Assembly: GCA_965372715.1 (NCBI GenBank)
Contig: CBDVDH010000001.1
Span: 107,717-127,716, forward strand
Direction of reading: 5' to 3'
DNA length: 20,000 nt
Source: an uncultured bacterium
GTDB lineage: Bacteria > B130-G9
Position 1 is the first letter of the stretch. The number at the start of each line of letters is the position of its first letter. The translations under genes were made by a program, and so were the position numbers. The notes beneath the pieces are model-generated. The model was not told the DNA's origin. It saw only the letters and a program-made list of their open reading frames with translations, and ran no database searches. This document shows, piece after piece, positions 1 through 20,000 of this stretch.

Positions 1-2
1 CA

Positions 3-965: not shown

Positions 966-1020
966 GTGGAGCGGGGAGACGACGTCTTTGGGCAACGATG
1001 CTGACGGGAAGGAGAGAGAC

Positions 1021-1551
1021 ATGCAAGAACTGCGTTTGAAGGACAAGGTCATCCGGCTGGTTGAGGGGGATATCACCGAGCAGGAGACTGATGCGATTGT
1101 CAACGCCGCTAACAGCCGTCTTTGGATGGGTGCTGGCGTTGCTGGCGCCATTAAGCGGCGAGGTGGGAAGGAGATCGAGGAGGAGGCGGTCGCAAAGGGG
1201 CCGATCCCCATTGGTGAGGCTGTGGCGACCGGCGCCGGGCGGCTTGCTGCCAAGCATGTCATTCACGCGGCCGGAATGGGTCCTGACCTTTTGACGGACG
1301 CCGCCAAGGTCCGAAGCAGCACCTGGAATTCGCTGCTTCGCGCCCACGAGCTGGGTCTTTCTAGCATTGCGTTTCCGTCGATTGGGACGGGTGTCGGCGG
1401 CTTTTCGATGCGCGAGTGCGCCGAGATAATGCTTGGCGAGGCTAAGAGGTTCTTCAGCGAGCGTGATACGTCGATCGAGGAGGTTCGCTTCGTTCTGTGG
1501 GGCAAGCCGGCGTTCGATACGTTCGTCGAAGTCCTTCAACGGCTCGAATAG
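1021..1551 (+). CDS. Macrodomain (ADP-ribose-binding / O-acetyl-ADP-ribose deacetylase-like) protein
   Basis: Motifs GDITEQETDAIVNAAN, GAGVAGAI, GEAVATGAGRL, VIHAAG and SIAFPSIGTGVGG. GGAAGGAGAG RBS precedes ATG 1021. Confidence 0.92.
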   Translation: MQELRLKDKVIRLVEGDITEQETDAIVNAANSRLWMGAGVAGAIKRRGGKEIEEEAVAKGPIPIGEAVATGAGRLAAKHVIHAAGMGPDLLTDAAKVRSSTWNSLLRAHELGLSSIAFPSIGTGVGGFSMRECAEIMLGEAKRFFSERDTSIEEVRFVLWGKPAFDTFVEVLQRLE

Positions 1552-1558
1552 GCTCGAC

Positions 1559-3652: not shown

Positions 3653-3700
3653 AACTGCCGACAGTCAGCTGCTAACGCAGATTACCGACCCTGGTCGCAT

Positions 3701-3729
3701 TTGACAGGCTCTGGAGCAGTTGCTAATAT
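3701..3729 (+). promoter_or_regulatory. Sigma70-type promoter
   Basis: TTGACA (3701-3706), 17-nt spacer, TAATAT (3724-3729) with extended -10 TG at 3721-3722. Confidence 0.7.
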
Positions 3730-3739
3730 CGAGCGTCCG

Positions 3740-4795
3740 ATGAGCTATCTAAACTCCGTAAGATATACTCGCTTAGCCATCGCCGTGACTGGGGGTTCTC
3801 CGGCGAGGAGTGCGCTCGGAGGCATCCTCTTGGCATTCTTGGCCCTGGTGACCTCAATAGCCTGGGCAGACGTATCAGTCAGAGCCTCCGTGGACAGAGA
3901 CCAGGTGGCGCTGGGCGAGCAGTTTGACCTGGTGGTCATCGTCCACCATTATGAGGGCTATACCGTCAGCGATCCGCAAGTCGGCAAAACGCTCGGCGAT
4001 TTCGTCGTCGTGGCGAGCTCCAAGGAGGAGAAAGAGGACGAGGGAGTAACGCTGGAGTTTCGATATACTCTCGCGGGATTCAAACTCGATAGGGCTACGA
4101 TCGCGTCAATTGAAGTCGGATACATCGACTCGGCGGACCGCCCCGGCAAACTCGCGACTGACCCGATCAACATCACTATTGTAGGAACCGTGCCTCAGGC
4201 CGAGACGGAGATCAAAGGTATCCGGGGGATGGTTGAAATCGAGCCGCGGATGGCGCTGTGGCTCAAGATAGTCATCTGGCTCGGCGCGATTATCCTTGCC
4301 ATAGCGATCGCGTGGTGGCAGCTAAGGAAGAGAAGAACGGTCGGCATCGAGGAGTTGGTGGAGACAACGCCTCCGCCGTCGGTCGTGGCGCTTGCTGCGC
4401 TTCAGAGACTGGCCAATAGCGACCTTCTGTTTCAGAGACGATACAAGGAGTTCTACTTTGCGTTGTCGGAGATCATCCGCAGATTCCTGTCAGGAAGGTT
4501 GAGGTTCTCGGCCGAGGACATGACGACGACGGAGATCGAGTTCGCAATGAGGGATGACCCGATCTCGAGGGAGTTTACTGCCACAACTCAAGAAGTACTG
4601 AGATTCTCGGACATGGTCAAGTTCGCCAAACTTATACCTTCCGACCCGAAAAACGATGAGATCATTGAGAAGGCCAGAAATGCGATCGAATTGGGCCGGG
4701 AACCATTGTTTGAAACGGAGACGGAGCCAATTCCTCAGGTCGGGGATTCATCGAGGGACAGAGAGAAGGGCGGAGGCGTGAGCATTGCCGAGTAA
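3740..4795 (+). CDS. BatD-like / DUF4381-like secreted single-TM protein
   Basis: Signal peptide (AWA/D), BatD-like start VRASVDRDQVALGEQFDL, a central TM, then ALAALQRL..KEFY..LSEIIRRFL..TTTEI..DMVKFAK, typical of Bat/MoxR-cluster proteins. Start is uncertain (3740 or 3785). Confidence 0.6.
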   Translation: MSYLNSVRYTRLAIAVTGGSPARSALGGILLAFLALVTSIAWADVSVRASVDRDQVALGEQFDLVVIVHHYEGYTVSDPQVGKTLGDFVVVASSKEEKEDEGVTLEFRYTLAGFKLDRATIASIEVGYIDSADRPGKLATDPINITIVGTVPQAETEIKGIRGMVEIEPRMALWLKIVIWLGAIILAIAIAWWQLRKRRTVGIEELVETTPPPSVVALAALQRLANSDLLFQRRYKEFYFALSEIIRRFLSGRLRFSAEDMTTTEIEFAMRDDPISREFTATTQEVLRFSDMVKFAKLIPSDPKNDEIIEKARNAIELGREPLFETETEPIPQVGDSSRDREKGGGVSIAE

Positions 4796-6998: not shown

Positions 6999-7010
6999 CG
7001 GACTTTGCTG

Positions 7011-8462
7011 ATGAGTGAGCGGATCGTCGAGAACTCCGCTCGAATGACTCTGTTACAGGTCTGCGGCATAGTCGCGAACTCTGTCCTTTACTTCATTCTG
7101 GCGAGGATGCTGGGCTCCTCAGACTATGGCGTTGCGAGCTGCACGGTATTCCCGGCGCTTGCGCTGTTGAGAACCGGCGTCTTTGGGGCCCTCATGTTCG
7201 GAACCGCAAAAGTCATAGCGGCCAATCCCGAGGCAATCCGGTCCTGCATCTCAGTCTCGCGAAAGGCATACGCCATCGTCGGGGGCATTCTTGTCGTAGT
7301 GTTCGTCGGGTTTGCCGGTCCGATAGCAGGTCTGCTGCGAGACCCTTCGCTCACGCATTATTTCCGCCTGATGGCACTAGCTGTCCCGCCGGTCGCGGCA
7401 TTCGTTCTATTCCAGGGGACGCTCGTCGGCCTAGAGGACTTCCGCTCGGCTATGCGCCTCGGGATGCTATTCCAGGTTCTCAAGCTCGTCCTGACGGTCG
7501 CGCTGGTGCTCATCGGCGCGAAGGTTTACGGCCTCATCTTCGGGTTCGCGATCTCCTGCGTCATCTCATTGCTCGTCTTTCGCCGCAAGACCCAGCCGAC
7601 CGCAAGAGATAAGGCGATTACACTGCCCTATTACCTATCAACCGTGGCGGGCATTTTCGTCACTTTTGCCATCGCAATCGCTCAAAGATACGTCAATCTA
7701 TGGAACCTGAAGCGAATCGTTTTCGACAACCAGACCGTGGCCTACTACTCAGTCGCCAATCAACTCGCGTCCATGCCCGCTTTGATCTTCACCGGGGTCA
7801 TGGTCGCGCTATGGCCGGCGATCTCGGGACTGGCAAATGCCCCCGACCTCTCGCTCGCAAGGGAGCATCTCAGCAAATCGTTCAAATACACCATGATCGG
7901 TCTGCTCCCCATCTCTGCGCTTCTGGCTGCTTTGCCGAATTACGCCATACGCCTCGCATTCGGCGCCGAATACGCCGCGGCTGCGAGCGTTCTCCCCATC
8001 CTTGTCATAGGCCTCGTTCTCCTGGCTCTCCAATCAGTAATCATGTCGGCGATGCTGGCCCTCGGTAAGGTCAAGAGCACGACCAGCATTATCGGCGGCG
8101 CCACAGTCGCGGCGTTCCTTGTCGGCACGCTGCTCATTCCTAGATTTGGCATTATGGGCGCGGCCGCGACGGAGGTCATGGGCTTTCTAGTTAGCTCGGC
8201 GCTCGTCGCTGTCGTCTCGTGGCGCACGTTCGGTAAGTTCACCTCGCTCGCCGAGGCGGGGAAGATCACAGCCTGTGCCGCCGTCCTATTTCTGACTGTG
8301 CGTGCGTTTGCCTTCCTGGGCTATTGGGTCGCTCCCGTCATCGTCGTCGCGCTCTGCCTCTATCTTCTGACGCTGACGATACTCGGAGTCCTCCCGACCG
8401 ATGGGATAAGGGCCACGCTCTCGCGCATTTGCATCCTCACCGCCCGAAGAGAGACCGAGTAA
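7011..8462 (+). CDS. Oligosaccharide flippase / polysaccharide biosynthesis protein (Wzx-like, MOP superfamily)
   Basis: About 12-14 hydrophobic segments. Motifs LARMLGSSDYG, VAYYSVANQL, FGAEYAAA and LIPRFGIMGAA. Confidence 0.85.
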   Translation: MSERIVENSARMTLLQVCGIVANSVLYFILARMLGSSDYGVASCTVFPALALLRTGVFGALMFGTAKVIAANPEAIRSCISVSRKAYAIVGGILVVVFVGFAGPIAGLLRDPSLTHYFRLMALAVPPVAAFVLFQGTLVGLEDFRSAMRLGMLFQVLKLVLTVALVLIGAKVYGLIFGFAISCVISLLVFRRKTQPTARDKAITLPYYLSTVAGIFVTFAIAIAQRYVNLWNLKRIVFDNQTVAYYSVANQLASMPALIFTGVMVALWPAISGLANAPDLSLAREHLSKSFKYTMIGLLPISALLAALPNYAIRLAFGAEYAAAASVLPILVIGLVLLALQSVIMSAMLALGKVKSTTSIIGGATVAAFLVGTLLIPRFGIMGAAATEVMGFLVSSALVAVVSWRTFGKFTSLAEAGKITACAAVLFLTVRAFAFLGYWVAPVIVVALCLYLLTLTILGVLPTDGIRATLSRICILTARRETE

Positions 8463-8517: not shown

Positions 8518-9714
8518 TCATTTCTCTCCATTGGCGCCATTCATGGCAAGCCTCGGCGACAGGAACGCCAGAATCAGCTCTTTGTGTGCCTGATAGCCCC
8601 GGGGGGTCTTCACAATTAAACCGGCGTCGCAAAGCGAATTGACATCTCTCGCGAGTGTTCTCGCAGTCTTATTGGCATACGCACGAGCGAGCTTTGGACT
8701 GACATCCGGCAACGCAGAAAGCGGGACCGGGTCCCTCAAGGGAGAGAGATCGAGCGCCAAATGCCGCTGTCGTCTTGCCGTCTCAGATCGCTTGTCTCTG
8801 AAGAATTCGTGAACGTAATTCCGCCATGTGACATCCCACTGCTGCTCCCAGATGACCCCTAATTGCAGGCTCAGACCATCCAAGAATCCCCCAATCGCGT
8901 ATCTCATGAACGGCACGACGTCGCCGCCTCTCTTGCTGGCGAGATCTAGCTGCCTGTAGTATTCCGTCCGCGTGAGATTGTAATGATTACTTAAGAGGTG
9001 CGCAGACGCTGCAGGCACCCCGGACGAGATCAGAATCTGGAACTCGAGGAGGCGAGCGGTTCGTCCGTTGCCATCTCCAAAAGGGTGAATCCAGGCGATA
9101 TACAGATGAGCAACAACGGCCTTAAGAATGGCAGTAGCTATCCCACCCAGGCCATCCCTGGGTGAGAAATCAGCGCTGTTGAGCCACTTGCAGACTCTAT
9201 CAAGAAGGTGCTCACCGTCCTCCGCCGGTGCGCCTCGATAACGGCCCACCGTCACACCCTTGGTGCGCAGCTGACCAGGGCGGAGGTCGTCATCTAACTC
9301 AAGGCCGCGAAGCACCATCCTATTCATCTCACAGATCATTCCCGTCGTGATCTCCGAGGTTTGTCCGCTCCCGACAAGTTTGAAGATCTCGTTACCCGCG
9401 TGGATGATGTTGTCAATCTCTTGCCGTAGATACTCCCGCGACGGAGGGAGTTTCAGCTCTCCGGCCAGATGCTGTAGAACCTCCTCCTCACTGAGAGTAT
9501 TTCCCTCGATTGCGGTCGTGGCTAAGACACCCTTCGCCAAATACATTCTGTAGAGCTCCTTGGCGGTATCTGGTCGAAGCGGCACGCGGGCAATGTGCTC
9601 ACATTTGGATTGGCACTCCCCAAGCATTATCCAGAACGTCGCGGGCGCAGACCTGAGATCGGCAGAGAACTTAAGCCAGGGATGTGTCGATAGATATGTC
9701 CTATTTTCTGTCAT
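8518..9714 (-). CDS. Fic family protein (class II-like) with a C-terminal winged-HTH
   Basis: Canonical HPFGDGNGRTAR, inhibitory-type motif TTAIEGN, and C-terminal ARTLARDVNSLCDAGLI. Confidence 0.92.
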   Translation of the reverse strand: MTENRTYLSTHPWLKFSADLRSAPATFWIMLGECQSKCEHIARVPLRPDTAKELYRMYLAKGVLATTAIEGNTLSEEEVLQHLAGELKLPPSREYLRQEIDNIIHAGNEIFKLVGSGQTSEITTGMICEMNRMVLRGLELDDDLRPGQLRTKGVTVGRYRGAPAEDGEHLLDRVCKWLNSADFSPRDGLGGIATAILKAVVAHLYIAWIHPFGDGNGRTARLLEFQILISSGVPAASAHLLSNHYNLTRTEYYRQLDLASKRGGDVVPFMRYAIGGFLDGLSLQLGVIWEQQWDVTWRNYVHEFFRDKRSETARRQRHLALDLSPLRDPVPLSALPDVSPKLARAYANKTARTLARDVNSLCDAGLIVKTPRGYQAHKELILAFLSPRLAMNGANGEK

Positions 9715-9773
9715 CTGACGAGCGCCCCTAAACGCTTTCTAATAGGCATGGTATGATTTTATATCACCTATTC

Positions 9774-9830
9774 TGTCATAAGAATTGTCATACATAATGT
9801 CATAATGACCTGGCCAGATCATTATGTCAA
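9774..9830 (-). promoter_or_regulatory. fic promoter with operator-like repeats
   Basis: Minus-strand TTGACA (9830-9825), 17 nt, CATTAT. TGTCATA occurs three times at a 12-bp period (9774, 9786, 9798). 26-bp near-perfect palindrome at 9801-9826. Confidence 0.6.
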
Positions 9831-9895
9831 GAAAGATGTGATGCGAGAAATGAATCCCTAGCTCAATTGGGCGTAGCTTCCGCCAGTCCGCCTCT

Positions 9896-9956
9896 GGAAA
9901 GATGAAGGATGAAATATGAAGGATGAATCGTCCATTAGAGCCGCAATCCGAAATCG
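9896..9956. repeat. Heptamer tandem repeat and trailer repeat copy 2
   Basis: GATGAAG GATGAAA TATGAAG GATGAA. 9918-9941 matches 8474-8497 at 22/24. Confidence 0.75.
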
Positions 9957-9972
9957 ATGATCGCTGACCCGC

Positions 9973-10185
9973 TCAGCGCGCCAAAGGAACCGTTTCGAAC
10001 AGGAGTCTTCGGGCATCCGCGGCGGGCGCCCGCTTGGACAGATGTAACATCTCAATGCCAACGACGCGGCCGTCTGCTCCATAATCCAGAATAACGCCGG
10101 GCGATACTTCCTCCGATTCCGCTGCCTGGGCATCCGACAAGGTCAGATACAGGGCGTCCGCCTCTTCATCGATCCTTAGTATCAT
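9973..10185 (-). CDS. DUF2283 family protein (putative antitoxin)
   Basis: DEEADALYLTL...ESEEVSPGVILDYGADGRVVGIEML signature. The start overlaps the upstream stop (ATGA). Confidence 0.88.
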   Translation of the reverse strand: MILRIDEEADALYLTLSDAQAAESEEVSPGVILDYGADGRVVGIEMLHLSKRAPAADARRLLFETVPLAR

Positions 10186-10432
10186 TTCAGTTTCTTCTTT
10201 CCTCGGTCGAAGTACGCTGTCACCACGCTCGGTTCAGCGCCCTTCATATTAACTACGACACGAAGGACTCTGCCGCCGAAATCCGCAACACGCAACAGAC
10301 GATGCTCCAGGTCCGAATCAAGCCGGTCTGGCTCCTTGTCTTCGGGAGAAACAAGAGCCTCCTCCACCCATTCTAGCGCATTCCCCTTTTGACAATAGCC
10401 TCTCGAGCGTGCTCAGGCAGGACGTATTTCAC
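10182..10432 (-). pseudogene. DUF4258 family putative toxin, frameshifted
   Basis: GTG 10432 gives MKYVLPEHAREAIVKRGMR*. Restoring one base near 10380 gives ...KRGxALEWVEEALVSPED...GRVLRVVVN..VVTAYFDR, a full DUF4258-like protein. Confidence 0.78.
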
Positions 10433-10498
10433 TTATCCTTCATCCTTTCTGCAAGGCTAAATTATGAGGGCTGAAGAGTGAATCATCAATCAGAGCGC
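10433..10498. repeat. Inter-module junction: inverted heptamer copy and trailer repeat copy 3
   Basis: ATCCTTCATCCTT at about 10435-10447. GAAGAGTGAATCATCAATCAGAGC (10473-10496) matches 8474-8497 at 19/24. Confidence 0.65.
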
Positions 10499-10539
10499 CC
10501 TTCACTTTTGCGCAAAGCTCCGTCATTGCCGCACCTCGT

Positions 10540-10938
10540 TCAGCCCTGCCTAGCCTTTGCTTGGACTTGGCTTATCAGCTTGAGCGCCTTGTCCAAATCT
10601 GCCTTGATCTCCTCGTGCTCATATTCGGCAGGAGGCCCGGGCGGATAACGCCCATCAATGTAATAGCGAGACGCTTTCTCGCAAAGCTCTAGAAAATCGC
10701 CGAAGTCATCATCGAAGCTCGCGATGTGATTGAGAAGCGCGTCAAGTTCGTGCGTCTTTGGCGGCTTCCTGCCATGAAGAACGAGGTAGCCTTTCAGATA
10801 CTTCTCGATCGCCTGCTGAATGTGATACACAATAGAATCTGTGTGACCGCGCTGCTCGTAGATTAACTGCGCCGTTTCTATGTCGTGCTGACCTCTTTCG
10901 AACCACTCCTCGGCTTGTCTCTCGAAGGCCTCATCCAT
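10540..10938 (-). CDS. HEPN domain protein
   Basis: HIQQAIEKYLKGYL..PPKTHELDALL..YIDGRYP. The start overlaps the end of the MNT gene. Confidence 0.9.
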   Translation of the reverse strand: MDEAFERQAEEWFERGQHDIETAQLIYEQRGHTDSIVYHIQQAIEKYLKGYLVLHGRKPPKTHELDALLNHIASFDDDFGDFLELCEKASRYYIDGRYPPGPPAEYEHEEIKADLDKALKLISQVQAKARQG

Positions 10939-11260
10939 AGAGCAGCTCTCCCCTCTCAAGTATCTCTTCGACGAAGAAATCCCTCATCGCAATTCTGTTT
11001 TCGATCTCTTTCTCAGTGTAAACAAGGGGAGACACCGACAGCCGCCGGACGCGGTCCCGGACAAGCCTTTTCACCTCAAGCCATCTCTCAATGGGCCTCT
11101 TCTCCGTGTCCTTGATGATCAGGAGGTCAACGTCGCTATCCTCGTTTGGCTCGCCGTAAGCATAGGAACCGAAAAGAATCACCTTCTTGGGCCCATATCC
11201 CTCGACTACCCTCTGAACGATCTCAAGGATTACCTCTCTCAGTCTTCCATCGACTATCAC
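10931..11260 (-). CDS. Minimal nucleotidyltransferase (MNT), HEPN partner
   Basis: VILFGSYAYGEPNEDSDVDLLII (GS..DxD) and C-terminal EILERGELLYG. Confidence 0.92.
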   Translation of the reverse strand: MIVDGRLREVILEIVQRVVEGYGPKKVILFGSYAYGEPNEDSDVDLLIIKDTEKRPIERWLEVKRLVRDRVRRLSVSPLVYTEKEIENRIAMRDFFVEEILERGELLYG

Positions 11261-11314
11261 ACTGGTACCTCCAACAGCTTCGTCGTATCGTTCCCAGATA
11301 TGTCAACCACCTTG
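11257..11314 (-). repeat. Second copy of the methyltransferase 3' tail (58-bp direct repeat)
   Basis: 50/58 identical to 13099-13156. Encodes KVVDISGNDTTKLLEVPV*. Confidence 0.88.
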
Positions 11315-13102
11315 TTCTGGAAGCCGGAGGAAGGCCTGCACAATGTCAAGCATCTCATGTCTTTCCGCCCCGTTGTCCATGTATTTGTCCCGTTCAAGAA
11401 GCTGATCCGCGGTCATTAGGCCGATCGCGTTAATCACTTCCTTGTTGAACTTCTTGAGATCTGTGAAATCGCCGCAATCGGGGGAGGGATCTCGGCAGAC
11501 TCGCTTCACGGCGTCCGGATGCAAGTAATTCTCGATCTCCCTTTTCTTTGTTATGAAGAAAACCCCACCCTCAGCTTTGCAGCTGGCCTCCCAGTTGCGT
11601 TTTTTCTGGTCAATGGGCTGGTCTGGGCTTTCTTTGTCGCTGTCGATTAAGACTCCGTACCGCACACTGAGGTTACGGAGTGCTTTACGCGCAACCCAAT
11701 GCTGCAGAGAATCCTTTCCACCGAGCGGGATCAGGCCAATTCTTGCCTCATCCAATGTTCTATCTATTCGTCCGGCGTTCTTTAAGAGCTTGGAGGCCCG
11801 GGTAAGAAACTTAACGTCACCCTCGCCCTCGACGAACACGCACGCTCTATAGCCGATTATCCGGTCGCACGGCTCGACACCCAGCTCGCGAGCTAGCTCT
11901 ACGAGATCAAGGGCGGTGCCCTGCAAGATTTCGCCGACTCCATCTTGTCTGCGTACCAAGACCAGGTTTTGCTGGTCCGTGGAGCCCGCAAATACCGGCG
12001 AGTGAGACGAGATGAGGACTTGGCCCTCGCGGGCGATTTCGGCAAAGGAACTCAGCAGCACGCGCTGGGCGCCTGGGTGTAGATAAGTCTCTGGTTCCTC
12101 TACAGCGAAGATCCGGCCGTGGATTTCAAGGCCCTCGCTTCTTCGCTGAGCAAGATACTGAAAATACGCAACCATGAGGAGCCGTCGTAGTCCGGATCCC
12201 CTTTTGCCGAAAGCAATTGCCTGACCTTGTGCGTCGGTGCATTCAATGCGGAACTTCACGAGATCTTTCCAGCTAAATGAGGGGTCTGGCCTCATGGAGG
12301 CCACCTCATCCGTATGCTCCTTGAGAAGAGAGTGAATCTTCTGGACCTCGTTGTCTATCCGCTCGGTAAGGCCGCGCTCGATCAAGTCCCTCCCCTCAAT
12401 GTCGTGCACAGCCGTTTCGACGACTTCTTTGAACTTGCTCTGGAATGTCGTCTCCTCCTCACTCAGCCGGTAATCAGCAGGGAATAGTGTGAACTGCGGC
12501 AGGTAGGGGCCGATCCTGTTGAGAACTCTTTCCACCTTCTCAAGCTGCCTGCGGGATTTCTGAATTCCTCGTTTGTTTGCCACCTCGCGCAGGACCTCTC
12601 GTTTGTCCTTGTTGGTGATGGCTCTCCCAGACTTCTTGAAATCGAGATGGTATGTCTGGCCGCGCTTGTTCAACTCGGGCTCCTTCAGGGAGCAGAGGTT
12701 GGAGAATTGATCATCCTCGAAGTCCTGAGCGATGATGGACTCCGCCGGTTTCTTCGTCTTCTTGCTTAGGCTATCCGGGGTGAAGGTCTTCCTTATCGTG
12801 AGTAGTCCCTCTTCGTCTAGCAGGTTTTCTGAGGAGAGTGTCGTTGGCACCCCATCCTCGAGTTCCAGTGCCTCCGGAAGGTCAGAAAAAGACACCTCAA
12901 TCGACAATGCACATCCTTGGCCGGCTCCCTTTGTTAGATCCTCCTGGTCCGGAGAGCCATTGAAGAAAATCTCCAGAGCATGAAGGATGCTGGACTTGCC
13001 CGAGTCGTTCTTGCCAACCAGTGTGGTAATATCCCCTACCCTTATCTCCGTTCTCTCTGCAAAGCACCTAAACCCCTCCAACGCGATCTTGGCGATTCTC
13101 AT
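11303..13102 (-). CDS. OLD-family ATP-dependent endonuclease (ABC ATPase + TOPRIM; GajA-like)
   Basis: Walker A GKNDSGKS, RGSGLRR, Walker B/D-loop AVEEPETYLHP, H-loop SSHSP, TOPRIM FVEGEGD...DSD and KREIENYL. GGAGGT RBS precedes ATG 13102. Confidence 0.87.
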   Translation of the reverse strand: MRIAKIALEGFRCFAERTEIRVGDITTLVGKNDSGKSSILHALEIFFNGSPDQEDLTKGAGQGCALSIEVSFSDLPEALELEDGVPTTLSSENLLDEEGLLTIRKTFTPDSLSKKTKKPAESIIAQDFEDDQFSNLCSLKEPELNKRGQTYHLDFKKSGRAITNKDKREVLREVANKRGIQKSRRQLEKVERVLNRIGPYLPQFTLFPADYRLSEEETTFQSKFKEVVETAVHDIEGRDLIERGLTERIDNEVQKIHSLLKEHTDEVASMRPDPSFSWKDLVKFRIECTDAQGQAIAFGKRGSGLRRLLMVAYFQYLAQRRSEGLEIHGRIFAVEEPETYLHPGAQRVLLSSFAEIAREGQVLISSHSPVFAGSTDQQNLVLVRRQDGVGEILQGTALDLVELARELGVEPCDRIIGYRACVFVEGEGDVKFLTRASKLLKNAGRIDRTLDEARIGLIPLGGKDSLQHWVARKALRNLSVRYGVLIDSDKESPDQPIDQKKRNWEASCKAEGGVFFITKKREIENYLHPDAVKRVCRDPSPDCGDFTDLKKFNKEVINAIGLMTADQLLERDKYMDNGAERHEMLDIVQAFLRLPEQGG

Positions 13103-13449
13103 ACTGTCACCTCCCAAAGCTTCGTCGTATCGTTGCCGAATATGTCAACCACCTTGACCAGAATCTTGTACCAGCCAGGCTCTTCGTAAGTATGCGACGC
13201 GCTTGTCTGAAGCTTCGGCTGTTTGCGCGTCCTGAAGGACTGCCAGCCGTTGCGGAAACGCCCTTGTTTTTTGTCGTCGCGGGCGCTGTGCGTGAAGAGC
13301 TCTCGCTGCGCCTTCTCGCGGTCGGCCTTCGATTCGTTGACGCTCTCGACGACCTGAAAGGGCAGTATCGTCCTGTCAACCTTCCTGAGCTCGCCGTTCT
13401 CGTCATACTTGCCCTTCCAGACAAGCTCCGTCCTCTCAACGCCTTTCAT
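13099..13449 (-). pseudogene. Internally deleted type III-like site-specific DNA methyltransferase remnant (116 aa, in frame)
   Basis: N-terminus TELVWKGKYDENG...LPFQVVESVNES is fused to C-terminus WQSFRTRK..L...HTYEEPGWYKILVKVVDIFGNDTTK. Both ends are characteristic of these methylases, and no DPPY/F or FxGxG motif remains. Confidence 0.75.
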
Positions 13450-13457
13450 TGCTCGCG

Positions 13458-13625
13458 ATCCTCCAATCTCCAGTCTCCAGACCGTAGTCTTCAGCCTCCA
13501 GCAAGTGCAGAGCATTGGAACACAGGTTTGGCGATGGATCAAGGCTTGTCGGCGTCTCGGAGTGTGCCTGAGGGAAGGTCATTCGCCGTCCCTACAAGAG
13601 CAGACGCGGGGGTCTGCCCCTACAA
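13458..13625. repeat. Leader repeat copy A: heptamer run, 55-bp conserved block and two GTAG-type REP palindromes
   Basis: 13501-13555 matches 14238-14292 at 46/55. 13584-13625 matches 14310-14351 at 39/42. AGTCTCC-like heptamers at 13458-13499. Confidence 0.85.
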
Positions 13626-13719
13626 TATCACAGTTCGGCCTCCACAAGTGAGGGACATCTGCTAATGTGCATATCGTTAGTGTCAGGCCGGACCTTGGCT
13701 TTAGCCGTGGCATGTCCCC

Positions 13720-13950
13720 TCACAATAGATCGCGAAACTCTTCAGCATTCAGCCCCATATCCTCCAAGATGCCTGCCAAGGTCTTGCGCTTGATGGTCTT
13801 TCCTACAAGCATGGGCACCACTATCCTGGCCCGGTCTCTCTCCCGGTAGTAAACGGCGTGGCTTCCTTTCTGACGGTCAAAGACGAATCCCACCTTTAAG
13901 GCTGCCCTGACCACTTCCCTGCCTGTCACGATAGGGAGCTTAGGACTCAA
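13720..13950 (-). CDS. hicA: HicA family toxin
   Basis: LPIVTGREVVRA..KVGF..DRQKGSH...IVVP....IKRKTLAGIL. The TTG start overlaps the hicB stop. Confidence 0.9.
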   Translation of the reverse strand: MSPKLPIVTGREVVRAALKVGFVFDRQKGSHAVYYRERDRARIVVPMLVGKTIKRKTLAGILEDMGLNAEEFRDLL

Positions 13951-14174
13951 AGGGCGACCTCTACTGGCTTGATGAAGATGTCCTCCACTGGCAGGGACTC
14001 GCCACGTGCGCGAAGACTCTCCAGGTACGCCTCAATCGCCTCCCTGACATTGGCGAGGGCCTCGTCCAGTGTGTCGCCCTGCGTGTGGCAACCTTTCAGG
14101 GTAGGGCAGAACGCGTGGTAGCCGCCCTCCTGTTCCCGCTCCAAAATAACCGTAAAATGATGCGTCTCCATCAT
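13947..14174 (-). CDS. hicB: HicB family antitoxin (short, no DNA-binding domain)
   Basis: VILEREQEGGYHAFCPTLKGCHTQGDTLDEALANVREAIEAYLE, with AGGAG/GGGAG RBS. Confidence 0.92.
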   Translation of the reverse strand: MMETHHFTVILEREQEGGYHAFCPTLKGCHTQGDTLDEALANVREAIEAYLESLRARGESLPVEDIFIKPVEVAL

Positions 14175-14201
14175 CTCCCTATCTCCTTAATCCGCAATCG
14201 G

Positions 14202-14351
14202 TCATCCTTCATCCTTCATCTTTCCGCCTTCATCCTTGCAGGTGCGAGGCATTGGAACACAGATTTGCGGCTGAATCAAGGCTTGTCGGCGTGTGCAGGG
14301 CGGGGCAAGCGCCGCCCCTACAAGGGCAGACACGGGGGTCTGCCCCTACAA
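14202..14351. repeat. Leader repeat copy B, including the right inverted repeat of the island (14215-14234) and two REPs
   Basis: TCATCCT heptamers, the conserved 55-bp block, and REPs at 14297-14322 and 14324-14350 (GTAGGGGC-stem on the minus strand). Confidence 0.85.
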
Positions 14352-14403
14352 CTTCGTCTTTGGCCCGTAGGGGAATCTGGCGTTAAGCGTCAACTGCTTA
14401 TGA

Positions 14404-14435
14404 AAGCGGGGACCCGGTGTGGCGGGTCCCGGCTT
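14404..14435. terminator. GC-rich stem-loop between the divergent blocks (possible terminator or attenuator)
   Basis: AAGC-G-GGGACCCG / GTGTGG loop / CGGGTCCC-G-GCTT, with only weak U-tracts. Confidence 0.35.
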
Positions 14436-14489
14436 GTGTCGAGAAACAGAGCGATAACGCAAAACGGAATCGAGGGCGAGGTGAGTCAG

Positions 14490-15893
14490 GTGGCGCAATC
14501 AGAGCTTGGGGTGCTTCAGAATGGGGGCGAATCGGGCGGGCGAGGGTCGAGCGGGACGGTTGTTTCGGGGGCGAGGCTGTCCAACTTGACGGAGGTCGCA
14601 AGCTTCAGGCGCTGGTATAACAACCGGGACGTTCGCATTCCGCTCTACGAGAGCATGACGGCGGCTCAGCTGTCGCTCAGGCTTCCTATCTCAATCGGTA
14701 TTCCCAGGCAGATAATTGACAACTCAGCTGATGCGTTGTTCGGCGACGGTCGTTTCACAGGTGTTCGAATGGTTGGCCCCGACGACGCGGAGAGCGCCCG
14801 GCTTCAGGCGCTGTGGGATAGGGTGTTCAGCGACAATTCCATGCGACAGCGGCTCCTGACCGACGCCATCGACACTAGCATCTGCGGCGGGATATTCTAC
14901 TCCATCAGTTACTGCCCGGCAGGCCCAAGCGTGTTCAAGGTGCAGTCCATTAGCTACGATCAGCTGTGGGACGTCGAGTTGGACGAGCTCGATACCGAGA
15001 AAGTGGTGGCCTACATCTTTCAGTGGGAGCAGCTCGAACGAGACTCGGGGGACGACCAGACGAGGCGCTGGTATCGCGTCGAGATAGACGCGGATAGGAT
15101 CGTGAGGATGCGCGCCGCTCGTCCACACACAGCAGGCAACGACGGCGAGGGGGTCGAGTTCGAGGTGACGAGCGTCTCGGAGCACAATCTCGGAATAATC
15201 CCGGTCGCACACGTCGCCAACTCCATCCAGCGGATGCGGACGGTCGGCGATTCGGACATCGCTCCTCTCGTCCCAATGCTTGACGCGCTCAATCAAATGA
15301 TGTCGGACGCCTATTGGCAGTGCTACAACGACCAGTCGATACTCAAGGCGATCAACATCGCGGCGCCGGACACTGATGACCTGGAAGAATCGGCCATTCG
15401 CCTCGGGGGAGACCAAATCCATTTCCTGACCCAGAACGAGCAGCTGAACCAGGACATCGTGCGGATGAAGCCAGTCGGCATTCCCGAGAGCTTTTTCAGG
15501 ACGATTGATCTCCTCGTGGGCCAGATTTACAGGACTGCGGGTGAGTCTCATCTTGACCCGCTCAAGTGGACGGGGACCAACATCTCAGGCGTCGCGCTTC
15601 GGTTGCTTTATGAGCCGCTGGCCAAGAAAACGTATCGAAAGCGTATTTACTGGGCGTCGGGACTCGAGCGGCTCGCCAAGATCATATTCGCCTACGCTAA
15701 CTCCAAATCGGTCGTGTTGTCGGAGTCTGGCGGCTTCGTGCTTGGTGGCCCCCAATACCAACTGGACGATATTGAAGTCCTCTGGGGTTCCCTGATGCCT
15801 GGCGATGAGGTCGAAGAGCAAAAGCTGGTTCTGGACGACCTTTCGGCCGGCCTGATCGGTGTGGATGAGGCCAGGCGCAACCGGGGACTATAG
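14490..15893 (+). CDS. Phage portal protein (SPP1 gp6-like)
   Basis: IIDNSADALFG, HNLGIIPVAHVAN...GDSDIAPLVPMLDALN, NISGVALRLLYEPL..K and IEVLWGSLMPGDE motifs. GAGGTG RBS precedes GTG 14490 (about 467 aa); start is approximate. Confidence 0.82.
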   Translation: MAQSELGVLQNGGESGGRGSSGTVVSGARLSNLTEVASFRRWYNNRDVRIPLYESMTAAQLSLRLPISIGIPRQIIDNSADALFGDGRFTGVRMVGPDDAESARLQALWDRVFSDNSMRQRLLTDAIDTSICGGIFYSISYCPAGPSVFKVQSISYDQLWDVELDELDTEKVVAYIFQWEQLERDSGDDQTRRWYRVEIDADRIVRMRAARPHTAGNDGEGVEFEVTSVSEHNLGIIPVAHVANSIQRMRTVGDSDIAPLVPMLDALNQMMSDAYWQCYNDQSILKAINIAAPDTDDLEESAIRLGGDQIHFLTQNEQLNQDIVRMKPVGIPESFFRTIDLLVGQIYRTAGESHLDPLKWTGTNISGVALRLLYEPLAKKTYRKRIYWASGLERLAKIIFAYANSKSVVLSESGGFVLGGPQYQLDDIEVLWGSLMPGDEVEEQKLVLDDLSAGLIGVDEARRNRGL

Positions 15894-15899
15894 AAGTCG

Positions 15900-15965
15900 T
15901 TCGAAGTTCAAGGTTGAAAGTTCAAGGTTGAGGGTCGGCTGTAGGGGCGATTCACGAATCGCCCT
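15900..15965. repeat. Heptamer run and GTAG-type REP
   Basis: TTCGAAG TTCAAGG TTGAAAG TTCAAGG TTGAGGG, then GTAGGGGCGATTC-AC-GAATCGCCC at 15941-15964. Confidence 0.8.
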
Positions 15966-16022
15966 TAGATTGAAAGGGGCGGATAGACGCCTGGAACGCA
16001 TTGAAAAACAAGGGAGGTTTGG

Positions 16023-16520
16023 ATGGCAGATCAGGAAACAGTCGAGGAGAGAGTGGAAGCAGGCGCTGAGGTTGAGGCGGCTGCCGAGGAATCTGAGCTG
16101 AATAGGGAAGAGGTTGAGCCCGGCCCTTCCGACGATAGGGCGGAGCTTCTGCGGCGAGCGGTGTTCGCTGAGGAGGCGCTGGAGCTCTCGCGTTATATTG
16201 GGGACAGGAACCTCTTGCAGCGGCTTCGTAGTGTGATTGCTGGCCAGACGGAGGTTGAGCTCAAGCAGAAGCTTTCAGTCTTGAAGGATGTTCTGGCGCA
16301 TATCAAGGAATCTCAGGGCGGCGACCGGCCCACCCAGGAGAGTTTCAAAGAGATGGTCGCAAGCGAGGTTCAGCGGAATCTCGATCAACTCAATAATGCC
16401 GCGGAGACGGTCGATGCGGCGGTCGGCCAGATGCCAGGCGGCAGCAGCCTGGCCGTGAAGGATAGCGCCGCATCGCGGCTGAGGCGCCTGGCTAGGGTGA
16501 GAGGCATCCTCATCAAGTAG
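16023..16520 (+). CDS. Putative capsid scaffolding protein
   Basis: Acidic N-terminus, helical body and basic C-terminus. Lies between portal and capsid genes. GGGAGG RBS. Confidence 0.5.
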   Translation: MADQETVEERVEAGAEVEAAAEESELNREEVEPGPSDDRAELLRRAVFAEEALELSRYIGDRNLLQRLRSVIAGQTEVELKQKLSVLKDVLAHIKESQGGDRPTQESFKEMVASEVQRNLDQLNNAAETVDAAVGQMPGGSSLAVKDSAASRLRRLARVRGILIK

Positions 16521-16562
16521 TTCCAAGTTTCGAGTTTGAAGTTCCAAGTTTCAGGTTCAAGG
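16521..16562. repeat. Six-unit heptamer tandem repeat
   Basis: TTCCAAG TTTCGAG TTTGAAG TTCCAAG TTTCAGG TTCAAGG immediately after the stop codon. Confidence 0.8.
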
Positions 16563-16593
16563 CATGAAAGCAATATAGGAGGAGGAAGAGAAG

Positions 16594-17016
16594 ATGGCGT
16601 GGAAGAACAAGGACGCTCGGGGCAGCTGGGAGGCGGTAGCGAGCGTTGACGTTGAAGAGAATGAACTGATGCACATCACCACTGACGGCAAGACTGTGCT
16701 TGCCGACGCCTCAAGCGCCGTTGCGCGGGAGGCGCACGGTTTCGCTGCGCTTCGTGGTTACGAGGCTAGCGAGCGCGCGACGCTCGTGCGCAGTGGGAAG
16801 ATAGCGGGGATAACCGACGACGCTGGCGACCCGTTGACGACCGGGTCGATCTATTATCTGAGCGAGACGCCCGGCAAGATCACGGCCACCAAGCCGACCG
16901 CGGACGGCGACGTGATTCAGGTTGTAGGCGTTGCTGCGGGACCCAACGAGCTCAATATCTCGATTGGGCCGGCGTTTGTGGTCGCAAGTTCAGGAACCTT
17001 TCTACGGGCTCTCTAA
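16594..17016 (+). CDS. Capsid decoration/cement-like protein (DUF2190-like)
   Basis: LADAS...AHGFA...LTTGSIYYLSETPGKITATKP..GDVIQVVGVA pattern. Strong RBS, directly before the major capsid gene. Confidence 0.65.
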   Translation: MAWKNKDARGSWEAVASVDVEENELMHITTDGKTVLADASSAVAREAHGFAALRGYEASERATLVRSGKIAGITDDAGDPLTTGSIYYLSETPGKITATKPTADGDVIQVVGVAAGPNELNISIGPAFVVASSGTFLRAL

Positions 17017-17078
17017 TCGACGCCCGTAGTAACCCACTGAACGACACCAGGTAACACAAAGCATGGAAGGGGAATACA

Positions 17079-18140
17079 TTGGCTACATTTGACAGCTATC
17101 AGTATCGTGGCGGCGTCTATGTGGGCGGCGTTTACGGGACTGACACGGATATTGACTGGCGGCAGGTCCTCAAGGACGTTCAGGGCCTTGCGAAGGCCTA
17201 TAACGACCGAGATGTCTCGGGTCTTGCGGACCGCTTGACTCACAAGACGACGAGCGAGGCAGTCAAGCAAGAGATAAACCGCCTGGTCGCAAAGGAGGTC
17301 GCCGAGGGGCGCGAGCCGGATGTCGAGTCCACGAGCGTCTATGAGTTTGCCCTACCGATCAAGGAGTTTGAGGTAGGGTTCTCGATGACGAGAACCGCCC
17401 AGAAGAGGATCGATCCGAGAAGGATAGAGAACCTCTTCGCCAGCGTGATTCAGGCGCATCTTCAGCAGCGGCTCAAGAACGCACTGACGCCCGTTTTCTC
17501 CACCAACCCGGCGGGCAGTGAGTGGGGAGGGACGTGGCAGGTGAACACCGACTGCCCTGATTTCCAGGCGAACTCGTTCTTTGGCACGCCGCACACTCAC
17601 ATTTTTGCCAGGACCGCGACCAGCCTGACGTTCGATCATCTGCGGATGCTGGCCGAGGAGATACAGCATCATGGTTTCGGCGCACCGGGCGTCTATGGTG
17701 AGAAGACCCTGCTGCTTCTGTTGAACGTAGCTCAGGCAAATGACTTAATCCAGCTCGCAGACTGGACAACATACTCAGGACTGCCTGACTCTGTCGTTGA
17801 ACGACTCGCGCTCGACGGGATCAACGTCAATCAGGGCATAGGTGGGTTCATCGTCAACGTCAACAACATGATTCCGGAGAACTACGCGGTTGCCATCGCT
17901 CTCGACACGCCGTATCCGGCGGTCACGACACGCGTTGAGCGGCAGCGTCAGTATCAGGGGCTCGTGATTGAGACGCCATTTGAGGGCTCGCAGTATCCGT
18001 TCCGCGATTCTGTGTTCACGTTTTCGGAGGGCTGCACATTGACGCAGCCGAGCGCGGTTGCGGTTCTCATGCTTGGCGCCGATGACAACAGCACGGACGA
18101 GGACATCAGCGATTATGTAGTGCCCGAGTTCTACGCGTAG
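17079..18140 (+). CDS. Putative major capsid protein (HK97-like fold)
   Basis: 353 aa with an EVAEGREP...LPIKEFEVGFSMTR E-loop-like segment and P.F....F...HTH...L.EEIQHHG. Position fits the head module. TTG start after GGAAGGGG. Confidence 0.68.
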   Translation: MATFDSYQYRGGVYVGGVYGTDTDIDWRQVLKDVQGLAKAYNDRDVSGLADRLTHKTTSEAVKQEINRLVAKEVAEGREPDVESTSVYEFALPIKEFEVGFSMTRTAQKRIDPRRIENLFASVIQAHLQQRLKNALTPVFSTNPAGSEWGGTWQVNTDCPDFQANSFFGTPHTHIFARTATSLTFDHLRMLAEEIQHHGFGAPGVYGEKTLLLLLNVAQANDLIQLADWTTYSGLPDSVVERLALDGINVNQGIGGFIVNVNNMIPENYAVAIALDTPYPAVTTRVERQRQYQGLVIETPFEGSQYPFRDSVFTFSEGCTLTQPSAVAVLMLGADDNSTDEDISDYVVPEFYA

Positions 18141-18154
18141 AAAGGGGAATTGAC

Positions 18155-18538
18155 GTGAACGCTTCAGACTTCGAGGTAAGGCTCCGGGCAGTGCTTTCGG
18201 ACCTTTCGGAACAGCTTACGGACGGGCAATTCGAGCAGGCGATCGCTTCTGCGACCGATATAACAGGGATTTCACTGCCGACAAGCGATCCGGAGATGAT
18301 CGAGGCGCTGCTCAACAGGGGTGAGGCGATCTGTCTTGAGACGCTTCAAAACGACTGGCTGCCGCGGTTCGACGTGACGTATGCGGGGGACAAGCTCTCA
18401 CGGGCGGATGTGGCGGAGCAGATCGAGCGGAAGTTGGCACGGCTTGACACGCGTTGGGAGGTTCTCTCGGGGCGATACAAGCCCAGCGCCGAGCGCGGCT
18501 CAAGGAATGTCTCTGTTAGCACGGCATATCGGGTCTGA
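18155..18538 (+). CDS. Putative head-tail adaptor/connector
   Basis: 127-aa helical protein right after the capsid gene, with VRLRAVLSD..EQLTDGQFEQAI resembling connector N-termini. Confidence 0.5.
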   Translation: MNASDFEVRLRAVLSDLSEQLTDGQFEQAIASATDITGISLPTSDPEMIEALLNRGEAICLETLQNDWLPRFDVTYAGDKLSRADVAEQIERKLARLDTRWEVLSGRYKPSAERGSRNVSVSTAYRV

Positions 18539-18550
18539 GGGGACTTTTCG

Positions 18551-19270
18551 ATGGCACGCGAGTCGGACGGGTCAAGAGAGAGATCGCAGCTATTTCGCGA
18601 CATTCATCAAGCAAGTAACGAAGCGCGACAGATTGGGGGTTGGCAGAAGGCGTCCATAAGGCGGCTTATTCAGAGCGATTCACCCGGCATCGGTCTGCCG
18701 CCGACGGACGCCTACTCCAGCGGCCTCATCGATCTGAAGGTCTGCGCCTCATCCGTGCCGCAGGAGCTCTGCGACGGGCCAGTCGCCTCGACAACAAATG
18801 CGGCCATGCGGTTTGAATTCTGGAACGTCGAGGTGTTTCTGGGTGACGAGGTCCTGTTCGACGGTGATGCTTACGATGTGAGGCAGATCGAGGATAGAAC
18901 GCCAAGCGTTCTTCTAGCGAGCGTCGAGACTCAGAGCGGCGTCGTCGTGCTAAAGGCGAACGATGCTCCTGAGGAACCAGTCGCAGCGATGTGTATCGTC
19001 AGCACAAAGCCCGCGGGTCAGGTCTCGTTCAAGCTCGAATACACGGATGGGAACGGTGAGGAGACGGTCTCGGACGCGATCACATTTGCTACGGACTGCA
19101 AGGTGGGCGATTCTCAGGTGATTACGACCGGCGGCGAGGAGGCGGCTGTGGCCTCTTTACAGGATATCACGGAGTTCGAGGGCGAGCTCGGTGGCGGCGT
19201 GCTGAGGATTACGGATAATTGCCCCTTCAGAACGCGCGTGCTGGCCGAACGACGAGTTGGCGGCCAATAA
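18551..19270 (+). CDS. Putative head-closure (stopper)-like protein with an internal insertion
   Basis: Synteny, GDEVLFDGDAYDVRQIED and terminal RTRVLAERR, with about 105 extra residues between them. Confidence 0.42.
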   Translation: MARESDGSRERSQLFRDIHQASNEARQIGGWQKASIRRLIQSDSPGIGLPPTDAYSSGLIDLKVCASSVPQELCDGPVASTTNAAMRFEFWNVEVFLGDEVLFDGDAYDVRQIEDRTPSVLLASVETQSGVVVLKANDAPEEPVAAMCIVSTKPAGQVSFKLEYTDGNGEETVSDAITFATDCKVGDSQVITTGGEEAAVASLQDITEFEGELGGGVLRITDNCPFRTRVLAERRVGGQ

Positions 19271-19371
19271 GTTCGCCTCGCCGTACGGCGGAGTCTGAGA
19301 TGAACGGCGAATTAGCGGTTGATGAGGCCGACTTCTGAATCCCGCACTGACATCTACTATGGAGAACGGAC

Positions 19372-19881
19372 ATGACATTGCCAGATAGCGCGAAACCGCG
19401 GAACAAGCGGCTGTCGTTCTACAAGTTCGTTGTCGATAATCTGTCGGACGACGTGCCAGTCATCGTTCAGGGATGCTCCGACCTATTTGGTGGATGGGTT
19501 GATCCTCGGACCGTTGACTCGCTCTCGAGCTGGATCGAGCTGTTGGTTGACAGCTTTTCTGGCGGCCTGAACTCCAAGATGAGGGTCAGGTTCGTCGTCA
19601 ACGTTCGTGAAAACCGCGACGACGAGAACTTCCAGATGAAGCGCATGGACGAGGTGCTCGGGGCGATCTTATCGCTTCTCAATCTCTCGGGCGGTGCAGT
19701 CATTCCCATTTACGACTTCTCGGATCCGGCCAACCCCGAGAGCATCGGCGAGGCACAGGGCCTCGGCTTCATTCCTCGGCACACGCCCGAAAAGGACGGA
19801 TTCGTGGATGATGACGGAGGTGTGAAGCGCTATGAGCTCCACTACGAGCTTTGGCTCTGGCAGGAGGGCGTGGCGCCTTGA
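19372..19881 (+). CDS. Putative tail terminator / neck protein
   Basis: Synteny and size. SWIEL...VRFVVNVR...MDEVLGAILSLL...IPIYDF...RYELHYEL pattern. GGAG RBS. Confidence 0.45.
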   Translation: MTLPDSAKPRNKRLSFYKFVVDNLSDDVPVIVQGCSDLFGGWVDPRTVDSLSSWIELLVDSFSGGLNSKMRVRFVVNVRENRDDENFQMKRMDEVLGAILSLLNLSGGAVIPIYDFSDPANPESIGEAQGLGFIPRHTPEKDGFVDDDGGVKRYELHYELWLWQEGVAP

Positions 19882-19949
19882 AAGCCGGAGCGCAAGAGGG
19901 CTTGTGAGGAGGTCGTCCGGAATGTGGCTACGGGAAACATGATACGCAC

Positions 19950-19975
19950 TGTAGGGGCGGTGCTTGCCCCGCCCT
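19950..19975 (+). repeat. GTAG-type REP palindrome
   Basis: TGTAGGGGCGGTGCTTGCCCCGCCCT is 25/26 identical to the reverse complement of 14297-14322. Confidence 0.85.
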
Positions 19976-20000
19976 TCATACGTTCGGTCGCATCAGAGAA

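Follow-up and report, generated by a model that had tools for sequence, protein, structure and literature searches.

What kind of element is a series of apparently intact phage head and neck genes that begins directly at the portal gene, with toxin-antitoxin genes and no terminase gene upstream of it? This question is raised by positions 14490-19881 of a 20,000-nt stretch of DNA (hereafter the window), which corresponds to positions 107717-127716 of contig C1 in a metagenome-assembled genome (MAG) of a bacterium (G000) of the Coatesbacteria, which live in sediments and are little known. We found that the seven genes in the window are the start of a ten-gene virion operon derived from a phage, and that a large terminase (TerL) is encoded at a second, unlinked locus. 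We consider it probable that the two loci form a host-owned, vertically inherited system resembling a gene transfer agent (GTA), that is, a viriform.

The window encodes a series of phage head and neck proteins

Seven intact open reading frames (ORFs) lie on the plus strand at 14490-19881, separated by gaps of 12-129 nt. Read from the gap sequences, each is preceded within a few bases by a purine-rich GGAG-type motif, which bears out the initial annotation of seven intact genes with good ribosome-binding sites. The genes are:

14490-15893, plus strand: g1, SPP1-type portal protein by homology, 467 aa, GTG start (PF05133, phrog_64)
16023-16520, plus strand: g2, 165 aa with an acidic N-terminus, scaffold-like from position only
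16594-17016, plus strand: g3, small capsid-associated protein, 140 aa, the name "decoration" coming from position only
17079-18140, plus strand: g4, major capsid protein by homology, 353 aa, TTG start (phrog_3990)
18155-18538, plus strand: g5, 127 aa, neck protein (adaptor) from position only
18551-19270, plus strand: g6, 239 aa, possible head-closure domain with a C-terminal extension (phrog_161)
19372-19881, plus strand: g7, 169 aa, tail terminator from a fold match

The identities of the portal and of the major capsid protein are confirmed by homology. The portal scores 59.2 bits with PF05133, whose gathering threshold is 25.5 (E = 4.7e-16), matches phrog_64 (2.7e-20) and is 71-94% identical to its orthologues in six genomes; its open frame extends back to 14085, where it overlaps hicB on the opposite strand. 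The capsid protein matches phrog_3990, "major head protein", at 3.5e-23, and is 24% identical (tblastn) to the annotated capsid proteins of the Mycobacterium phages DrLupo and Barnyard, which are the closest cultured phages judged by this protein.

For g7, an AlphaFold2 model built from an 8-sequence alignment reached moderate confidence (pLDDT 68.8, pTM 0.70). The top Foldseek matches in PDB are the Mu terminator (9khy, 6.4e-5), T5 p142, T4 gp15, lambda gpU and the pyocin and diffocin collars; 15 PDB chains match at E<=1e-3 with a TM of about 0.5, nearly all of them terminators, collars or neck proteins, and BFVD returned DUF3168, tail completion and tail terminator proteins. By its modelled fold g7 is a tail terminator, as had been guessed from the sequence, and such a fold implies a tube-like partner.

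Evidence for the other four genes is more limited. One of the four g6 orthologues scanned (that of genome G005) weakly matches phrog_161, "head closure Hc1" (E = 0.01); this gene is the fastest-evolving of the set, with a ratio of nonsynonymous to synonymous divergence (dN/dS) of 0.27, and an ESM Atlas search with it gave nothing. No Pfam or PHROG family matches g2 at E<=0.01, and one of three orthologues scanned has a weak match to phrog_1052, "head assembly" (E = 0.045; dN/dS 0.15). The g3 protein matches two families without assigned function (phrog_4368 at 2.5e-9 and phrog_12121 at 1.7e-5), and its gene always lies directly 5′ of the capsid gene, including in the distant relatives L042 and L044 described below. 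None of the four g5 orthologues scanned has a family match, and the gene is conserved and under selection. Among the names first proposed, portal, capsid and terminator therefore stand, closure has one weak match behind it, and scaffold, decoration and adaptor derive from position only. No protease match, in Pfam or PHROG, was found on any of the seven genes.

As originally described, the operon starts at the portal gene, with a divergent toxin-antitoxin island upstream of it. This island also holds defence genes, and beyond it lie host polysaccharide genes. A Pfam scan of the window found no terminase, protease, integrase or replication gene upstream of the portal.

The operon continues across an assembly break

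The initial annotation ended the operon at 19881. Contig C1 is 127,716 bp long and window position 20000 is its end; the apparent end at 19881 thus reflects an assembly break and not the end of the operon. The break lies within a repeat:

19882-20000: spacer between g7 and g8, left arm of a palindromic dispersed repeat; contig C1 ends inside it

The last 19 nt of C1 are identical to the first 19 nt of contig C32, and the joined ends form one perfect palindrome. In a sister species (L011) the g7-g8 junction is on a single contig, and the proteins downstream of g7 there map to the start of C32. The operon thus continues on C32 and is ten genes long, the last three being:

C32:93-953: g8, 286 aa, possible tail tube
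C32:1054-1386: g9, 110 aa, no family match
C32:1535-2209: g10, predicted phage-type DpdA (7-deazaguanine DNA transglycosylase), 224 aa (phrog_887)

Beyond g10, C32 carries unrelated ORFs and then host genes (an aminotransferase, a LigD-type phosphoesterase and HEPN). Reading this downstream flank had been proposed as a check for a prophage, and it holds three more conserved genes followed by host genes, not a prophage.

Neither g8 nor g9 has a family match in Pfam or PHROG, and profile searches against PDB sequences gave nothing for g8 or g10. The AlphaFold2 model of g8 is poor (pLDDT 27). In the ESM Atlas g8 retrieves viral hypothetical proteins, and tail-tube families are the nearest named clusters (0.87-0.88), a weak lead; a word-based protein search found 9 homologues of it.

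A large terminase is encoded at a second locus

The description "terminase-less" holds for the window but not for the genome: a TerL gene lies on contig C68 of G000, and its orthologues are present in all seven Coatesbacteria genomes. An orphan terminase gene, which the initial annotation had suggested might be sought elsewhere in the genome, is hence present in each of them. The locus comprises:

C68:10611-12554: TerL by homology, 647 aa, 54% identical to a 641-aa gene of L044/L042
C68:12850-13263 (L055): sigma-70 region-4 protein, 137 aa, directly 3′ of TerL (PF08281, 8.4e-12)

The gene would have been missed but for distant relatives in which TerL lies beside the capsid gene: in L044 and L042 the 641-aa gene lies just 5′ of g3 and the capsid gene, which led to the homologue on C68. 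By tblastn the C68 protein matches 336 phage records annotated as terminase (large subunit), 239 of them at a coverage of at least 80%, with a best E value of 5e-34 (Streptomyces, Gordonia and Vibrio phages). It contains a P-loop-like LGKxSGKS motif and an ILGIIDEA motif, both invariant, and has no Pfam match and no PDB sequence match. The gene occurs once per genome and without stops in seven of seven genomes, at identities of 97, 78-80, 77 and 70%, and has a dN/dS of 0.10-0.21. Its similarity to phage TerL spans the ATPase half as well as the nuclease half, which together with the P-loop and Walker-B motifs identifies it as a large terminase.

The downstream 137-aa protein and a divergent 180-aa ORF on the other side of TerL are kept in all five relatives examined, and neither has a phage match. 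The 137-aa protein is under purifying selection, and its role may be that of a small terminase or of a dedicated regulator. The remainder of C68 consists of host glycosyltransferase and similar genes.

Searches with Pfam terminase models PF03237, PF03354, PF04466 and PF05876 in the seven genomes, and with PF17289 and PF20441 in G000, had returned no conserved terminase. These are false negatives, and with six models missing a well-conserved TerL, a conclusion of "terminase-less" from profile searches alone is unsafe. The one PF03237 match above cut-off, on contig C81 of G000, lies in a different, podovirus-like module that carries a portal gene and a capsid gene of its own; sub-threshold matches in G001 and G003 are to a DEAD-box helicase. 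The C81 module (L010:1-10982) encodes a Terminase_6N-type TerL (1194-2711), a portal (2994-4868, phrog_1216) and a major head protein (6569-7723, phrog_1328). The PF03237 search found no such phage in the sister species, and C81 is probably a piece of a phage or prophage that ended up in the bin of this MAG.

Both loci are vertically inherited and under purifying selection

We compared all seven species genomes of this GTDB phylum (G000 and the other species, G001-G006), which are MAGs of 83-96% completeness from one family and four genera. The capsid gene is present exactly once and without stops in each of the seven. The order g1-g10 is identical in G004, G005, G001, G006 and G002, and the G003 contig ends within g5. 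The cluster is flanked by host genes that are alike within a genus and different between genera: HicAB and an aminotransferase in genus g1, UPF0014 and a phosphoribosyltransferase in genus g2. In G000 and G004 the operon lies next to genes for toxin-antitoxin and defence systems. The scanned flanks hold no integrase, replication, tape-measure or lysis genes; in five genomes scanned, no integrase, replication or regulatory module was found within about 6-10 kb on each side, and neither locus has att sites. The GC content of the cluster resembles that of its surroundings, and repeats of the host genome occupy its intergenic gaps.

In G005 (L012) a giant surface-type protein lies on each side of the cluster, at 14863-19353 and at 45-6143; neither was seen beside it in the other genomes. 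They are, respectively, a 1496-aa beta-helix/DUF1565 protein with a local phage tail PHROG match and a 2032-aa Ig-domain protein.

Divergence of the cluster follows that of host proteins. Amino acid identities to G000 are:

Capsid protein: G004 98.9%, genus g2 86-88%, G005 85%, G006 87%
RpoB: G004 96.6%, genus g2 83-84%, G005 81.7% (G006 left out)
GH57: G004 92.8%, genus g2 71-74%, G005 69%, G006 63%

Between genera the capsid protein is conserved no less than RpoB (85-88% against 82-84%). Pairwise identities of the ten concatenated proteins and of RpoB plus GH57 are, respectively, 96.0/95.3, 78.1/78.3, 78.0/80.5, 72.7/72.6, 89.6/89.0 and 95.3/94.2; G005 host proteins were left out of this comparison, and their values come from the per-protein comparison above. 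The trees of the cluster and of RpoB plus GH57 contain the same supported clades, (G000,G004) and (G001,(G002,G003)), and do not resolve G005 and G006. In the closest pair, the proportion of synonymous differences (pS) is 0.02-0.16 per cluster gene, bracketing that of rpoB (0.05), and 0.20 for GH57.

Per-gene median dN/dS between genera ranges from 0.05 to 0.27, with synonymous sites near saturation (pS 0.5-0.79). For the concatenated genes, dN/dS in the four unsaturated pairs is 0.18 (G000-G004, dS 0.10), 0.14, 0.11 and 0.08. Synteny, divergence and dN/dS across the lineage, the comparisons that the initial annotation had called for, thus give one copy in every genome, a divergence like that of RpoB plus GH57, and purifying selection. 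Collectively, these results indicate that both loci were already present in the common ancestor of the four Coatesbacteria genera sampled, have been vertically inherited from it and are kept intact by selection.

The last gene of the operon encodes a DpdA-like enzyme

We found that g10 matches phrog_887 at 1.8e-40 and 252 phage records annotated as DpdA, 7-deazaguanosine inserting enzyme or queuine tRNA-ribosyltransferase. It is 26-42% identical to phage DpdAs (best E value 9e-31), and 33% identical to the DpdA of phage CAjan over the catalytic core, with three aspartates aligned. These residues (D48, D84 and D177) are invariant in six orthologues. DpdA and the tRNA-guanine transglycosylases (TGT) are defined by three catalytic or base-binding aspartates, according to PMC10164549; judged by alignment, g10 has both the three active-site aspartates and a TGT-like core. 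There is no Pfam TGT match, and the structural zinc site was not identified in this shorter protein.

The G000 genome encodes QueC (C1:70343-70972, 2.2e-52) and, separately, a normal tRNA TGT. With a host QueC present, a supply of preQ0 is plausible; "singleton" DpdA phages that depend on host preQ0 are described in PMC6884629.

A host-owned particle system as the favoured interpretation

The genes found at the two loci are the parts needed to build and fill a phage head and to attach it to a tube. Two properties by which GTAs (viriforms) are recognised, as bioRxiv 10.1101/2022.06.10.494566 sets them out, can be read from genomes. GTAs are further characterised by particles that resemble tailed-phage virions, by a cargo of mostly random host DNA with too little room for the whole GTA gene set, and by delivery to other cells, which takes a tail or receptor-binding apparatus and a means of release. 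The system is fully endogenised at several loci (C1/C32 and C68), which are surrounded by host genes and lack an integrase and att sites; and sequence comparison indicates that its inheritance is mostly vertical, with co-diversification with the host, the deep branches G005 and G006 not being resolved. On these two grounds we read it as a GTA-like (viriform) particle system. Distribution, divergence, selection and the orphan TerL support what the initial annotation had inferred, a long-resident, selected GTA-like system with split loci rather than a recent prophage. Its other suggestion, a capsid-derived nanostructure without DNA, is less likely, as the set includes a TerL under selection and a DNA-modifying enzyme. 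A functional or recent prophage does not fit: the flanks are host genes in G000, G004, G005, G006 and G002/G003, and the cluster is present in all seven genomes.

If the system works as proposed, procapsids would be made from the portal, scaffold and capsid protein under some condition, and the unlinked TerL would pump DNA through the portal. The g5 and g6 proteins would then close the head, and g7 would cap a tail or tail-like tube. DpdA could swap guanine for 7-deazaguanine, using preQ0 of the host QueC pathway, and might act either on the packaged DNA or on the whole chromosome, which would give protection from nucleases.

Several points weigh against this interpretation. We infer particle formation, DNA cargo and transfer from the genes alone. 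The presence of a DpdA gene beside virion genes is no proof that the enzyme acts on packaged DNA. As for the delivery apparatus, a terminator fold is present, and g8 is possibly the tail tube, by its position and a weak language-model lead. A tape measure (PF10145), a gp25-type baseplate protein (PF04965), lysis genes and a small terminase were looked for in G000 and not found, negatives that are weak because Pfam models also missed the real TerL. In G002 the portal gene (L017, G002:C121, 2660-4071) consists of two overlapping ORFs in different frames, of 205 and 270 aa; the same single assembly recurs in a metagenome collection (L039), and the split could be real decay or a MAG error, all other portal orthologues being intact. 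Finally, "phylum-wide" here means seven MAGs of one family, in four genera.

Vertical inheritance and selection would suit any role that benefits the host, and a host-owned particle might serve another end than transfer, such as DNA export for biofilm or extracellular DNA, anti-phage defence or a decoy capsid, or a delivery device, with no benefit through recombination in a recipient. Distal tail, receptor-binding and lysis genes were not found, and in G000 and G004 the toxin-antitoxin and defence genes adjoin the operon; this defence neighbourhood, however, is not kept between genera, and the conserved TerL, portal and DpdA suggest that DNA is packaged and has to withstand nucleases, as a transfer device would require. 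We therefore regard a non-transfer role as unlikely. It is more improbable still that the locus is a satellite-like element of the kind of capsid-forming phage-inducible chromosomal islands (cf-PICIs), making its own heads and necks and taking tails and lysis from a helper phage. Such an origin would explain head, neck and terminator genes without tail tip or lysis genes, and the podovirus-like contig C81 in the same MAG could be seen as a helper; that phage, however, was not found in the sister species by the PF03237 search, the unlinked TerL sits among host glycosyltransferase genes, and the cluster has a fixed position within genera, a host-like divergence in seven of seven genomes and no integrase, replication or regulatory module nearby in the five genomes scanned. 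With neither an integrase nor a replication module in its flanks, no sign of mobility and vertical inheritance, the set does not have the character of a cf-PICI.

The split G002 portal and the several missing virion genes might also be taken to mean that the cluster is a decaying prophage remnant without particle function, whose genes persist by chance or of which only one, for example DpdA, is useful. A functionless remnant is hard to reconcile with the selection data: the ten genes and TerL have a dN/dS of 0.05-0.27 while synonymous sites are close to saturation, the capsid protein is conserved to at least the level of RpoB, and none of the six relatives departs from the gene order over the extent of its contigs. 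We consider this the least probable of the explanations.

Our best reading is thus a two-locus GTA-like system that is new for the phylum and unusual in carrying DpdA. A more specific version, which we put forward tentatively as possible but doubtful, is that the Coatesbacteria particle is of independent origin and packages 7-deazaguanine-modified DNA. It would then be the first GTA-like agent whose cargo is hardened against the restriction systems of recipients, its packaging motor being separately controlled beside a sigma-region-4 protein and its tail of an unrecognised kind or absent.

Comparison with known systems

GTAs have been established by experiment in a handful of lineages. If the Coatesbacteria system works as we propose, whole uncultured lineages would also keep host-owned virions, and a wider range of bacteria would have to be considered for capsid-mediated exchange of chromosomal DNA. 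With the known GTAs and viriforms (RcGTA-type Rhodogtaviriformidae, the multi-locus BaGTA, and BhGTA/VSH-1) it shares Caudoviricete-derived virion genes fixed in the host chromosome at more than one locus, the lack of integrase and replication genes, vertical and host-co-diversifying inheritance, and a TerL and an HK97-class capsid protein under selection. We found no sequence relationship to them, and no GTA is among the best phage matches listed for the capsid protein and TerL. The Coatesbacteria set also differs in belonging to a different, uncultured phylum, in having its TerL unlinked from the portal, in carrying no recognised tape measure, tail tip or lysis genes, and in being known so far as a set of genes. 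A further difference is its DpdA hypermodification gene, which we did not find described for any GTA: judged by title, none of the papers found that mention both gene transfer agents and deazaguanine is about a GTA with DpdA. The presence of this gene inside the operon suggests a link of DNA hypermodification to domesticated particles, for which we found no paper.

The order portal, scaffold, capsid, neck, tail terminator and major tail protein is shared with SPP1-/Barnyard-like siphoviruses such as DrLupo (NC_048743), as are the SPP1-type portal family and the lack of a protease match on the seven window genes. The DrLupo major tail protein (281 aa) and g8 (286 aa) occupy the same position after the terminator. 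In DrLupo, terS and terL lie directly 5′ of the portal, and the genes after the tail tube encode a chaperone, a tape measure of 2,000 aa and minor tail proteins, whereas in Coatesbacteria TerL lies elsewhere and DpdA, then host genes, replace the distal tail. Similarity between DrLupo and G000 is detectable in the capsid protein only; tblastn of the DrLupo TerL, tape measure, major tail protein and others against G000 gave nothing.

With phage DpdAs (that of CAjan, KP064094, in the Queuovirinae, and those of the singleton phages of PMC6884629) g10 shares the core aspartates and has no preQ0 synthesis genes beside it. The CAjan protein has 306 aa and g10 224 aa, the CAjan C-terminal part being absent from g10. 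Unlike its phage counterparts, g10 sits in a chromosomal virion operon, is passed on vertically and is not carried by a replicating phage, and in contrast to the bacterial Dpd restriction system, the DpdB-K partners were not seen in its flanks.

Capsid-forming satellites are mobile elements with an integrase, a replication module and dependence on a helper, and they encode heads and connectors and no complete tail. The Coatesbacteria set is like them in having heads and connectors without a complete tail, and differs in that an integrase, a replication module and helper dependence are not present and inheritance is vertical.

Distant relatives and rarity of the capsid family

A scan of metagenomes with the capsid alignment gave 14 loci. 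The most informative for TerL, L044 (Ga0180433_10015387, 152-8149) and L042, have capsid proteins 54-55% identical to that of G000, and a gene order of TerL, a 94-aa ORF, g3, capsid, a 184-aa ORF, a 644-aa protein with a staphylococcal nuclease domain, g8, g9 and g7. They may be phages or another domesticated lineage. A 950-aa protein on contig C42 of G000 is weakly similar to the nuclease-domain protein of L044, which is uninformative.

Among 1.84 billion protein representatives, the capsid family has 77 at E<=1e-3, 18 at E<=1e-10 and 3 at E<=1e-30, and the word-based protein search found 10 capsid homologues. The capsid and g8 homologues from that search, where named, come from Coatesbacteria or "bacterium" MAGs. 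IMG/VR scans with the capsid alignment and with three distant capsid homologues found no relatives. By these sequence searches the capsid family is rare.

Putative viruses for Coatesbacteria have been listed from cold seeps, according to PMC8319345, and its supplements might list this locus as a predicted provirus. Judged by title, none of the papers found that mention Coatesbacteria is about such a locus.

Repeats and gene neighbourhood

The initial annotation placed host-type repeats in the intergenic gaps of the operon, and we located both heptamer arrays and a GC-rich hairpin repeat there. Tandem 7-nt words are found at 14202-14237 (TCATCCT, five copies), 15904-15931 and 16519-16561. The hairpin repeat is a dispersed palindrome with arms of about 25 nt and a loop of about 26 nt. 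The copy 5′ of the portal (about 14295-14345) has about 112 blastn matches in the genome, and a repeat of the same kind 3′ of g7 (19940-20000 and C32:1-45) has about 140. The repeat takes up the final 50 nt of the window, is present at many contig ends and for that reason is a main cause of the assembly fragmentation.

A promoter and terminator scan gave signals no better than chance. No RNA sequencing runs were listed with the locus, which is uninformative either way.

Other features of the window, from the Pfam scan, are:

1-8462: host genes (NAD synthase, O-antigen-ligase-like, BatD-like, GH57, flippase)
8518-14174, minus strand: defence and toxin-antitoxin genes, comprising the next six entries
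8518-9714, minus strand: Fic
10182-10367, minus strand: DUF4258-like ORF
10540-11260, minus strand: HEPN/MNT
11303-13117, minus strand: OLD-family nuclease, 604 aa (AAA_15 at 5.7e-43 and an OLD-like TOPRIM)
13099-13542, minus strand: 147-aa ORF with a PKD-like fragment at its C-terminus (E = 8e-4)
13720-14174, minus strand: HicA/HicB
14175-14489: divergent hicB-portal intergenic region, with the TCATCCT array, the GC-rich hairpin repeat and the portal ribosome-binding site just 5′ of 14490

The OLD-family gene has no adjoining helicase gene and sits in an island with HEPN/MNT, the DUF4258-like ORF, Fic and HicAB. The 147-aa ORF with the PKD-like fragment overlaps the start of the OLD-family gene and resembles a gene remnant.

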